From Candidatus Eiseniibacteriota bacterium (GTDB taxonomy: Bacteria; Eisenbacteria; RBG-16-71-46; CAVPCR01), in contig CAWGMA010000001.1 of assembly GCA_963823555.1 (NCBI GenBank), positions 1,216,050-1,280,049 on the forward strand: DNA of 64,000 bases, written 5' to 3'. Below the pieces are notes generated by a model that was not told where the DNA came from, did no database searches, and saw only the letters and a list, made by a program, of their open reading frames with translations. Numbering within the stretch: position 1 is the first letter of the stretch; each line of letters starts with the position of its first letter. This document shows, in pieces, positions 46,116 to 49,204 of the stretch. The position numbers and the translations under genes were made by a program.

Positions 46116-49100
46116 GTGGGTCGAGAAAGTACGGGCCTCTTCTCAAAGGTCCTCGGCAAGGTCTTCGGCGGTACGAAGCACGAGCGCGATCTCAAGTGTC
46201 ATCCGGCCGATCGCGGACCGCATCAACGAGATCTACGGCGACCTCGAACGCCTGTCGGACGAGGAGCTCAAGCAGAAGACCGCCGAGTTCAAGGAGCGTC
46301 TGGCGGAGGGCGATACGGTCGACGATCTCCTGCCCGAGGCCTTCGCCGTGGTCAAGGACGCCTGCCGCCGTCACTGTCGGCAAGAGCTGGCGAGGTATGT
46401 GACATCGAAGATGCCACTGGGACATGGTGCCCTTCGACGTCCAGCTCATGGGCGCCATCGTTCTCCACGAGGGCAAGATCGCCGAGATGGCGACCGGCGA
46501 GGGCAAGACCCTGGTCGCCGTCATGCCCCTCTATCTCAACGCCCTGGCCGGGAAGGGCGTCCACCTGGTCACGGTCAACGACTACCTGGCCCGGCGTGAC
46601 TCCGAGTGGATGGGCGAGATCCTCCGCTTCCTCGGACTCACGGTCGGTGTGATCCAGCACGACATGCCGCCCTCGGCGCGCCGCGCCGCCTACGCGTGCG
46701 ACGTCACCTACGGCACCAACAACGAGTTCGGCTTCGACTACCTCCGCGACAACATGGCCGTCCGCCCCGAGGATCAGGTGCAGCGCGGCTACCACTATGC
46801 CATCGTCGACGAGGTCGACTCGGTGCTCATCGACGAGGCGCGGACTCCGCTGATCATCTCGGGCCCGGTGCAGCACTCCACCCAGCAGTACGGCGCGCTC
46901 AAGCCGGCGATCGATCGCCTCGTGCGGGAACAGATGCAAGCTCGTGAACCGATCGTCGCCGAGGTCGAGCAGCTGATCGGCGGGCAGGATGCCGGCGGTC
47001 ACGCCGACGATGTGGATGACGACGATGAGGATGGGGACGGCGATGCGGGCGGCCCGGTGCGAGGCAGTGGCGGCCGGTCGGGTGACCGCGACCAGGACTG
47101 GGAGGTCGGCGTCAAGCTGCTCACGGTGCAGCGCGGCGCGCCGAAGAACAAGCGTCTGTTCAAGCTCTACGCCGAGCACCCGGGCTCGAAGAAGCTCGCG
47201 CAGCGCGTCGAGCTCGATCTGATCCGCGACAAGCGCCTGCACGAGATCGACGAGGACCTCCTCTTCTCGATCGACGAGAAGAACCACATCACGGATCTCT
47301 CGGACAAGGGCCGCCACTCCTTTCGCCGAACGATCCCGGCTTCTTCGTCCTGCCGGATCTCGCGGTCGAGCTCGAGCGCATCCAGAATGAACCCGATCTC
47401 GAGGCCAGCGAGCGCTTGAAGCAACGCGAGGCGTTGCATCGCTCCTATGCCGAACGCGCCGATCGCATCCACTCCGTGCACCAGCTGCTTCGAGCCTACT
47501 CCCTCTACGAGAAGGACGTCGAGTACGTCGTGCAGGACGGCAAGGTCATGATCGTCGACGAGTTCACCGGCCGCCTGATGCCGGGCCGGCGCTTCTCCGA
47601 CGGCCTGCACCAGGCGCTCGAGGCCAAGGAGGGCGTGCAGGTCGGCGACGAGACGCAGACGCTCGCCACGATCACGCTCCAGAACTACTTCCGGCTCTAC
47701 GACAAGCTGGCCGGCATGACCGGTACGGCCGAGACCGAGGCCACCGAGTTCTTCGAGATCTACAAGCTCGACTGTGGTCGTCGATCCCGACCAACGAGCC
47801 GGTGCGGCGGGTCGACGATGACGACCTGATCTACAAGACCCGGCGCGAGAAGTACAACGCCATCATCGAGGAGATCGCGGCCATGCACGAAGCCGGTCGG
47901 CCGGTGCTCGTCGGCACGGTCTCGGTCGAGGTCTCGGAGACGCTGAGCCGGCTGCTCAAGCGGCGCGGGATCAACCACTCGGTGCTCAACGCCAAGTACC
48001 ACCAGCAGGAGGCCGAGATCGTGTCTCGCGCCGGGCGGCCGGGGGCGGTGACCATCGCCACCAACATGGCCGGCCGCGGCACCGACATCAAGCTCGGTCC
48101 CGGGGTCGTCAAGGGCAAGGAATGTGTGCTGCGCTGCGATCTCCCGCTCGAGGAGTGTGGCGCCACCGAGAGCAAGGAGTCCTGTCTCGACGACATGCCT
48201 GCGGGCTGCACATCATCGGCACCGAGCGCCACGAGGCGCGCCGCATCGACCGCCAGCTGCGCGGCCGCGCCGGCCGTCAGGGCGATCCCGGGTCCTCGCG
48301 CTTCTTCCTCTCGCTCGAGGACGATCTGATGCGGCTCTTCGGCACCGAGCGGATCGCCTCGATCATGGACCGGCTGGGGGTCCAGGAGGGCGAGGTCATC
48401 GAGCATTCGCTGGTCACCCGGTCGATCGGCAGCGCGCAGAAGCGGGTCGAGGTGCACAACTTCGAGATTCGCAAGCACCTCCTCGAGTACGACGACGTGA
48501 TGAACCAGCAGCGCGAGGTCATCTACGGGCAGCGGCAGGCGGCGCTCAAGGGCGATGACTTGAAGGAAGATGTGATCGAGATGATCGAGGAGCTCGTCGC
48601 CGAGAAGTGCGAGGAGCTCGTTGACCAGGGTGAGAGCTGGGAGGACTGGCCGCTCCGGCAGATCGCTGACGAGTTCGAGATCATCGCCATGCAGCCGATC
48701 GCCGTGCCCGAGCTCGGCGGGCGCGAGCCCATGGCCGGGCTGGTGGAGCACATGACCGCCGAGATGCGCCGCGCCTACGACGCCAAGGAAGCCGAGTTCA
48801 CGCCCGATCTCATGCGCCAGGTCGAGCGCTTCATCTTGATGCGTACCCTCGATGCCGCGTGGCGAGATCATCTCTACGAGGTGGATCACCTCAGGGAGGG
48901 CATCGGCTGGCAATCGGTCGCCGGCAAGGACCCGCTGATCGAGTACAAGCGGGAGGCCTTCCGTATGATCGAGGAGGCGCTGACGCGGGTGCGGCGCGAG
49001 ACCGTGCGCAACCTGTTCAAGGTGAGCCTGGTGGAGGAGCCCGAGACCCAGGTCGCGGCCCGGCCGCCGGTGGCCTACCGCCACGAGGCGGTCCCTGCCT

Positions 49101-49204
49101 ACGGGGGAGCCGTCGGCGCCCAGGTGGGTCCAGGGGGGCTGCCGCCGGGCCGGGAACGGGTCCCAGAGGGCCTCAGGGGTCCGCAGAGCCCAGTGGACCG
49201 GTGA
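46116..49204 (+). pseudogene. secA: preprotein translocase SecA, disrupted by at least 5 single-nucleotide frameshifts (apparent pseudogene or sequencing-error patch)
   Basis: SecA homology runs continuously from FSKVLGKVFGGTKHERDLK to the C-terminal zinc finger [13 protein letters not shown]. It switches frame near 46195, 46420, 47330, 47775 and 48205. At 48205 GCGGGCTGC reads [11 protein letters not shown] only if one G is added. Confidence 0.8.

Follow-up and report, generated by a model that had tools for sequence, protein, structure and literature searches.

The gene secA, which is essential for protein export, lies near position 46 kb of this 64-kb window (the whole stretch of Candidatus Eiseniibacteriota DNA that was analysed, 64,000 nucleotides) and cannot be read in one frame, and this raises the question of whether the gene is broken in the organism or only in its deposited sequence. 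Proteins of the window, including a 331-aa SecA fragment that is a called gene, are found on the NCBI/ENA record of a single metagenome contig of 2,304,102 bp. In the sequence as deposited, each frame contains 7–18 stops across the gene and none is uninterrupted.

With intact homologues as tblastn queries, positions 46116–49305 were identified as one SecA gene, in which frames 0, 1, 2, 1, 0, 2 and 1 follow each other collinearly. The raw ORF fragments match consecutive parts of the Pfam models (SecA_DEAD 76–250 and then 246–289; P-loop_SecA 2–102 and then 139–205), and the collinear pieces together with these successive model parts confirmed an earlier proposal that SecA homology continues through the frame changes. 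The gene does not end at 49204, as had been assumed, which is the stop of one fragment; its true stop is at 49303–49305, 3' of the SEC-C zinc motif. A single frame is reached only after at least nine frame-restoring edits, the other two events being a compensating pair. Nine edits turn the gene into one 1062-aa ORF with zero in-frame stops, which agrees with the claim of the initial annotation that in-frame stops and larger lesions are missing. The repaired protein matches each of the five SecA Pfam domains from end to end: SecA_DEAD or NBD1 (PF07517, model 6–289 of 290, E=4e-126), in which both the Walker A GEGKT and the DEVD box were found, the preprotein cross-linking domain (PF01043, 11–110 of 110), NBD2 (PF21090, 1–205 of 205), the wing/scaffold (PF07516, 1–199 of 200) and the SEC-C zinc-binding motif (PF02810, 1–18 of 19), a 13-residue sequence at 49237–49275.

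The repaired SecA is 72–76% identical over 99–100% of its length to the intact SecA of Candidatus Eisenbacteria/Eiseniibacteriota relatives and related MAGs (P0001-P0009), in which secA encodes 1078 or 1047 aa. It shares with them the five domains, an acidic insert, a five-Cys insert in NBD2, the C-terminal SEC-C zinc motif and the flanking gene order; the succession M6 peptidase, PQQ protein, secA, DUF494, topA, GIDA, PspC and integrase is common to the window, L081 and the P0003 contig. The relatives have one uninterrupted secA ORF at every indel site, whereas the gene in the window requires at least 11 single-base corrections to form one. An accessory SecA2 (4uaq, 6sxh, 6t4h) is the kind of second SecA that a decaying copy would need; in contrast to SecA2, the protein of the window is closer to SecA1-type chains, which are the best structural match for the NBD1 fragment (1nkt, E=1.6e-71, versus 3.9e-44 for 4uaq), has a SEC-C motif and is encoded in a housekeeping neighbourhood. 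No SecA besides the gene at 46116–49305 was found in the window. Judged by sequence and synteny, the locus is the predicted ordinary housekeeping secA of the organism, orthologous to the intact secA of related Candidatus Eisenbacteria, and nothing in these comparisons suggests that it would be a dispensable paralogue.

Five frameshifts had been counted in the initial annotation. Frameshift-aware protein-to-DNA alignment to 8 homologues increased this number to at least 11, with 6 extra and 5 missing bases called consistently (Table 1). Independently of the protein alignment, a nucleotide alignment to the intact secA of a relative (79% identity) put 1-nt gaps at 46201, 46375, 47317, 47773, 47782 and 48200. 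What had been read as one shift near 47773–47783 resolved into two, and a frame change that had been repaired at 48205 by adding a G to a G-run is real but was probably misplaced, since a base at 48198–48200 restores the conserved motif. Indel density is about 1 per 270 nt over a patch of about 3 kb, from the first event 81 nt into the gene to the last one about 180 nt short of the stop. Some events form tight clusters or compensating pairs, with spacings of 10, 16, 17 and 22 nt.

Table 1. Coordinates of the secA gene, its single-base events, its neighbours and the second indel patch (positions in the window)
Feature	Position	Strand	Remark
PQQ/beta-propeller protein, 855 aa, intact, upstream neighbour	43229..45796	+	left patch limit
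canonical secA (SecA_DEAD, PP_bind, P-loop_SecA, SecA_SW, SEC-C)	46116..49305	+	at least 11 single-base indels; 1062-aa ORF when repaired
extra T, aag[T]gtc	46197	+	removal gives back DLK-VIRP; 8/8 homologues; nucleotide gap at 46201
extra T, cac[T]gtc	46375	+	removal gives back CRRH-VGKSW; protein and nucleotide alignments
extra base, tgg[C]gag or cga[G]gta	46391..46394	+	once removed, frame-2 TGA at 46400 is out of frame
missing base, gcc-ac_-tgg	46410..46417	+	addition gives back conserved WDMVPFDVQ
compensating pair, extra ~46934 and missing ~46950	46934..46953	+	off-frame CKLVNR matches TKLVNS of homologues
missing base, cac-_tc-ctt	47315..47319	+	addition gives back GRH-LLSPND
two extra bases 10 nt apart (47773, 47783), gac[T]gtg and gtc[G]atc	47773..47783	+	removing both gives a 16-residue stretch exactly as in homologues
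missing base, atg-cc_-tgc	48198..48200	+	addition gives back conserved MPCGLHIIG motif
last frame change, net one missing base, best estimate ~49121	49043..49154	+	ambiguous placement: low-complexity Gly/Ala/Pro tail before SEC-C motif
DUF494 (158 aa, from 49445) and topA (756 aa), intact, downstream	49445..52272	+	right patch limit; zero control events
second, denser indel patch	58341..64000	-	citF, citE, citD, Iso_dh, two aconitase-family genes; runs off window end
citF	58368-60003	-	8 events
citE	~60000-60950	-	broken, second patch
citD/ACP	~60958-61250	-	broken, second patch
Iso_dh (isocitrate-dehydrogenase-like) gene	61255-62463	-	at least 10 extra bases
Aconitase_C gene	~62520-63090	-	broken, second patch
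Aconitase large subunit	63090 to window end	-	broken, second patch

Mapping in three genes, namely secA, citF and the Iso_dh gene, gave at least 29 events, every one of exactly 1 nt, and insertions exceed deletions by about 2:1 (at least 21 versus about 9). This spectrum bears on the cause that had been put forward initially, namely uncorrected homopolymer-length errors in G/C runs as in a nanopore consensus. When all of these events were checked for runs of three or more identical bases, none was found there, and most inserted bases are unlike both of their neighbours, as in aag[T]gtc, cac[T]gtc, gac[T]gtg, gtc[G]atc and tcg[C]atg. The length of the contig would agree with homopolymer errors, and three of the missing bases (47316, 48199, 46417) are readable as a contraction of a short C-run from 2 to 1 or from 3 to 2. 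Runs of at least four identical bases are also fewer in both patches, with 11 in this secA and 25 in that of the relative; these are small numbers in which each lost base is itself a frameshift, and therefore weak evidence. However, the excess of insertions speaks against homopolymer errors, which would moreover be expected along the whole contig and not in patches, so that this cause is unlikely.

Programmed recoding, by ribosomal frameshifting or transcriptional slippage at each site, has a single point in its favour, which is that the coding signal is kept in every segment. One gene would have to undergo 11 shifts, of which 6 are +1 and 5 are -1, yet a search of the shift sites for slippery X_XXY_YYZ heptamers and homopolymers yielded none, relatives encode SecA in a single ORF across all of these sites, and the same pattern is present in six other genes. 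Recoding is thus effectively refuted.

Those other genes lie in the second patch. Codon-usage segmentation and a distance-to-stop test confined mid-ORF frame switches to 46.1–49.3 kb and 58.3–64 kb, and about 45 genes in 1–46 kb and 49.3–58.3 kb are intact. The initial annotation had listed proteins of 994, 855 and 823 aa and topA as intact, which was confirmed, and had noted G/C-run indels of the same type in the terminal 5.6 kb; the terminal 5.7 kb does contain further frameshifts, though none of those mapped lies in a run of three or more. With the same relative and equally sensitive settings, PurH, GuaA, the M6 peptidase, DUF494, TopA and the integrase (about 3,300 aa) gave zero frameshift events, and the flanking genes cover their Pfam models in full. 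The damage is thus regional and not gene-specific: it is gathered in two patches that affect unrelated neighbours and have clean flanks, while about 45 other genes are intact.

Viewed separately, the secA patch reaches neither of the flanking genes and could look gene-specific. The control runs also called frameshifts in the N-terminal half of the PQQ protein and the C-terminus of GIDA; these were rejected as false positives in non-homologous or low-complexity sequence, with a low score per residue and uninterrupted ORFs. Rfam and tRNA scans of the window gave no matches.

Genuine pseudogenes, such as those of Mycobacterium leprae, Rickettsia and host-restricted Salmonella, have also gathered substitutions, stop codons and deletions of different lengths, and affect single genes here and there. 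Mira, Ochman and Moran reportedly described in 2001 that indels in real bacterial pseudogenes vary in size and are biased towards deletions, a spectrum that secA does not have. The locus resembles the pseudogenes of these organisms in its disrupted frame and recognisable homology, but differs in having 1-nt events only, an insertion bias, no stops, normal conservation and contiguous multi-gene patches. The repaired secA, citF and Iso_dh ORFs are all without in-frame stops. Of the 310 SecA columns with 97% conservation or more, 3 are changed in the repaired protein, each conservatively, and 23% of real SecA homologues differ at as many or more of these columns; in repaired CitF, 2 of 242 highly conserved columns are changed. 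Signs of relaxed selection, that is, nonsense codons and excess substitutions at conserved sites, are therefore absent from secA.

A recent real pseudogenisation of secA and of the citrate-lyase, isocitrate-dehydrogenase-like and aconitase-family genes, with export relying on another SecA encoded elsewhere, would be in keeping with frameshifts that stand in the public record, with a fragment that is a called gene, and with a secA patch that roughly matches the gene limits. It is nevertheless very improbable: 11 indels have accumulated in secA with zero nonsense mutations and without excess change at conserved residues, all events are of 1 nt with insertions at least as common as deletions, and like damage is found 9 kb away in six unrelated genes over a contiguous 5.7 kb, with the other 45 or so genes untouched. 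A decaying copy backed by a second secA is disfavoured because the gene is, by synteny, the clade's canonical secA and not an accessory copy, and because the same damage affects six unrelated genes. At least one indel also appears to be absent from an independent assembly, as judged by gene coordinates.

This assembly is a Logan contig of run ERR15459714 (4,153 bp), which is collinear with window positions 54538–58690, the offset being identical at 8 gene boundaries; k-mers of the organism occur in this run and in ERR12037369. The C-terminal citF gene of the contig has 106 codons and is open to the contig end; the same frame in the window closes after 87 codons owing to an extra base at 58568. 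From gene coordinates, not from sequence, we infer that this extra base is absent from the Logan contig. An exact look-up of the predicted intact citF C-terminus of 105–107 aa did not find it in the collection. Among contigs of close relatives, L082, at 94.6% nucleotide identity, matches the clean region collinearly and ends at 58570, two bases beyond the first citF indel, and L136 and L137 are only 80–83% identical and uninformative. A near-identical intact secA was not found in any collection searched: metagenome contigs queried with lineage-specific peptides gave only relatives at 53% identity or less, a protein search with the N-terminal 131 aa of SecA gave a best match of 68%, and generic SecA motifs in species-representative genomes gave 54% as the best among the matches listed.

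Taken together, the damage in secA is very probably a consensus-error patch from sequencing or assembly and not a dead gene, and in the cell secA is most probably intact. A local sequence-quality patch was also what the initial annotation had favoured, and damage that consists of indels only, is regional and comes without substitution decay fits every test run. The artefact itself we infer and have not observed. The deposited sequence would hold a poor-consensus patch of about 3 kb over secA and a second, denser one that would begin at about 58.4 kb and continue beyond the window. The indels most likely arose while a long, long-read-derived 2.3-Mb metagenome contig was built or polished, and raw long-read-type errors would have survived where accurate reads gave too little support. 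A contig of this length implies long reads; the platform and the technical cause, which may be low coverage, unpolished sequence or gap-fill sequence, are deduced likewise. As a counterpoint, polished nanopore assemblies mostly retain homopolymer indels, and those seen here are of another type.

A variant of the artefact, compatible with a consensus-error patch and possible but rather doubtful, is that reads of closely related strains were collapsed and that the consensus caller made indels around variant sites. It would explain the tight clusters and compensating pairs; related populations at 95% nucleotide identity occur in other samples, and k-mer contigs from two different runs begin at one point, about 49247, just within the 3' end of secA. 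Logan contigs are, however, short everywhere, so that breaks near the patch edges may be due to chance, and an examination of the repaired proteins for chimeric substitutions gave no sign of them.

Spurious pseudogenes resulting from assembly errors have been documented (PMC11017572; preprint 10.1101/2021.08.23.457338), and raw PacBio errors amount to about 8% insertions and 3% deletions (preprint 10.1101/2021.08.23.457338). As in the spurious pseudogenes that indel errors cause in assemblies from long reads or at low coverage (Cooley and Wright 2024, PMC11017572; proovframe preprint 10.1101/2021.08.23.457338; Sereika et al. 2022, PMC9262707), genes that are otherwise perfectly conserved are split here into adjacent ORFs by 1-nt indels, the contig has the great length of 2.3 Mb, and full-length genes emerge when the frame is repaired with protein guidance. 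Unlike in those cases, the errors within the 64 kb occupy two patches, one of 3 kb and one of at least 5.7 kb, and are not spread along the contig, nor are they homopolymer-associated.

That the indels are real, caused by a recent, localised and insertion-biased 1-nt mutational process in two chromosome segments, with survival through another translocase ATPase or a novel decoding of multiply frameshifted genes, is extremely unlikely. If they were true, the loss of a canonical secA would be remarkable; nothing here supports that. The broken secA is almost certainly an artefact and not a real biological feature, and the value of the finding is mainly practical. The errors of this contig come in patches and are not evenly spread, and therefore genome-wide quality scores can hide locally unusable stretches. 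Annotation pipelines would call secA and the citrate-lyase/aconitase cluster pseudogenes or strings of fragments, and such calls would reduce estimated completeness and wrongly imply that genes had been lost in the poorly known phylum Candidatus Eisenbacteria.

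Pieces of SecA are spread over all three forward frames of the window (G+C about 68%) from 46116 to 49305 on the plus strand. A tblastn search with the closest intact homologues, which derive from JGI metagenomes and share 72–76% identity, returned collinear pieces in frames 0, 1, 2, 1, 0, 2, and 1 (start coordinate modulo 3); the next-closest tier comprises MAGs of Candidatus Eisenbacteria/Eiseniibacteriota. Indels were mapped with a purpose-written protein-to-DNA aligner tolerating single-base frameshifts, which gave nine events at a strict penalty, at sites identical with three homologues, and eleven at a more sensitive penalty (table). 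The event at ~49121 lies within a Gly/Ala/Pro-rich tail, where placement is imprecise. Plain nucleotide alignment to the intact secA of L081, a contig of a relative (79% identity), independently placed 1-nt gaps at 46201, 46375, 47317, 47773, 47782, and 48200.

Frameshift events and further features of the window
Feature	Position	Strand	Basis or remark
secA extra bases	46197, 46375, ~46391-4, ~46934, 47773, 47783	+	frameshift-aware alignment, 8/8 homologues
secA missing bases	~46410-17, ~46950, ~47315-19, ~48198-200, ~49121	+	frameshift-aware alignment, 8/8 homologues
Second, denser frameshift patch	58341-64000	-	continues past window end
SecA acidic low-complexity insert	~46970-47090		aa ~285-325
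SecA five-cysteine NBD2 insert	48096-48200		repaired aa ~661-695
DUF494 (Smg)	49394-49921		longest ORF, 175 aa
Low-G+C segment	29792-31679		G+C 63% vs 68-73%
ORF	29745-30542		no match
ORF	30611-31507		weak FlgD_ig match only

Nine edits turn secA into one stop-free ORF of 1062 aa, and the other two events are a compensating pair (46934/46950) enclosing an off-frame peptide, CKLVNR, that matches TKLVNS of the homologues. The repaired SecA contains five SecA Pfam domains, each covered end to end, and the raw ORFs match successive stretches of the same models. These searches and alignments confirm the initial annotation that secA is frameshifted. Its count of five was too low, as the single shift read near 47770 is actually a pair of insertions separated by 10 nt, and three more events near the 5' end had been overlooked, and the correction proposed at 48205 is better sited at 48198-48200, where the conserved MPCGLHIIG is restored.

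The affected gene is the canonical copy. In the closest relatives secA is intact (1078 or 1047 aa) and lies in the neighbourhood found in the window, with the shared order M6 peptidase, PQQ beta-propeller protein, secA, DUF494, topA, GIDA, PspC, and integrase. The NBD1 fragment is closer to SecA1-type solved chains than to SecA2, and no second SecA was found within the 64-kb window. NBD2 of the clade's SecA carries an insert with five cysteines, conserved in nine canonical homologues (P0001-P0009), which may be an extra metal-binding element; an acidic low-complexity insert was also observed. In relatives and in exact database entries, DUF494 starts at the internal ATG 49445, giving 158 aa.

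Frameshift damage is not specific to secA. Viterbi segmentation by codon usage across the entire window, combined with the distance from each coding-segment end to its stop codon, showed that all coding segments in 1-46 kb and 49.3-58.3 kb, about 45 genes, end within 71 nt of their own stop, and that the coding signal switches frame mid-ORF in 46.1-49.3 kb and 58.3-64.0 kb. The latter patch holds citF, citE, citD (ACP), an isocitrate/isopropylmalate-dehydrogenase-family gene (Iso_dh), and the aconitase small-subunit and large-subunit genes. The CitE Pfam match is split over two different frames, citF has eight single-base events within 1.4 kb, and 1.1 kb of the Iso_dh gene contains 10 or more extra bases. 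Both citF and the Iso_dh gene are stop-free once repaired, and CitF stitched by eye is full length with 85% identity to homologues. Roughly one event falls in every 270 nt of secA, 175 nt of citF, and 110 nt of the Iso_dh gene. As a control, L081 proteins run at the same sensitive settings gave zero events in PurH, GuaA, the M6 peptidase, DUF494, TopA, and the integrase; outside secA, calls were confined to low-complexity, non-homologous terminal parts of two uninterrupted ORFs. Pfam models are fully covered in the genes flanking secA.

The mapped events number at least 29, each exactly one base, with at least 21 insertions versus about nine deletions. Uncorrected homopolymer error, the mechanism initially proposed, is not supported by the sequence contexts, as none of these events falls inside a stretch of at least three identical bases and the inserted bases are mostly unlike both neighbours, e.g., aag[T]gtc, cac[T]gtc, gac[T]gtg, and gtc[G]atc. 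Programmed recoding is effectively excluded, since a slippery heptamer is absent at every event site. There is no sign of decay beyond the indels. Repaired SecA is off-consensus at three of 310 columns conserved at ≥97% in 120 homologues (V→I, L→M, F→I), where homologues differ at 1.8 columns on average and 23% differ at three or more; CitF differs at two of 242 conserved columns. In genuine bacterial pseudogenes, indels are deletion-biased and of varied length and build up together with substitutions and stop codons; the spectrum in the window patches is the opposite. Genuine and recent pseudogenisation, backed up by another SecA, would need some thirty independent 1-nt indels in two contiguous stretches with zero other mutations and is thus very improbable. 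The spectrum resembles random long-read errors; raw PacBio errors comprise about 8% insertions and 3% deletions (proovframe preprint 10.1101/2021.08.23.457338).

A consensus-error patch in a long-read-derived assembly is therefore the best-supported account of the secA damage and very probably the correct one. The damage is regional and indel-only with normal conserved sites, as expected from the local quality problem originally suspected. The gene would be whole in the organism itself, and two stretches of the deposited sequence would retain errors of long-read type, left unpolished or under low coverage. Possible causes are a local shortfall of accurate reads, gap filling with long-read sequence, or collapsed strain variants; events occur in tight clusters and compensating pairs spaced 10–22 nt, which fits strain-variant collapse.

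By exact look-up, eight of 10 tested window proteins are recorded in NCBI/ENA on a single 2,304,102-bp contig, a length that for a metagenome would imply long reads. One of the eight is the 331-aa SecA fragment, a called gene there, so the frameshifts are already in the public record. No intact secA above 76% identity to repaired SecA was found in the protein collection, metagenome contigs, or genome representatives, among the matches listed. A Logan contig of 4,153 bp from run ERR15459714 encodes the exact methyltransferase protein (57559-58341), and its eight gene boundaries match the window at a constant offset of 54,537; this contig thus corresponds to 54538-58690, with no indel in the clean region. 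Its last gene, partial and on the minus strand, stays open for 106 codons between the true citF stop and the contig edge. In the window, the extra base at 58568 shuts that frame at 87 codons. Judged from gene coordinates alone, the ERR15459714 assembly would hence lack at least this indel; an exact look-up of the predicted intact citF C-terminal peptide gave no match. The exact DUF494 protein occurs on Logan contigs of ERR15459714 (1301 bp) and ERR12037369 (1029 bp), both starting at ~49247, inside the secA 3' end and 58 nt before its stop. This may mark a graph branch or coverage break where the secA patch ends and hints at a data problem there, but only weakly, as Logan contigs are short everywhere. 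L082, a contig from JGI sample 3300046048, is collinear with 56744-58570 across the integrase and methyltransferase genes at 94.6% nucleotide identity, indicating a closely related population in another metagenome, and ends two bases beyond the first citF indel.

Elsewhere in the window, a segment of low G+C and atypical codon usage was for these reasons scored non-coding by the coding model (table); it may be foreign DNA or encode poorly conserved secreted proteins. Neither tRNA genes nor Rfam families at the gathering threshold were found in the 64 kb.

Spurious pseudogenes of this sort have been documented (PMC11017572), and the secA break is very probably an artefact of that known kind, not a real biological feature. 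It serves as a warning that errors are patchy in this contig and that neither secA nor the cit, icd, and aconitase genes should be counted as lost.
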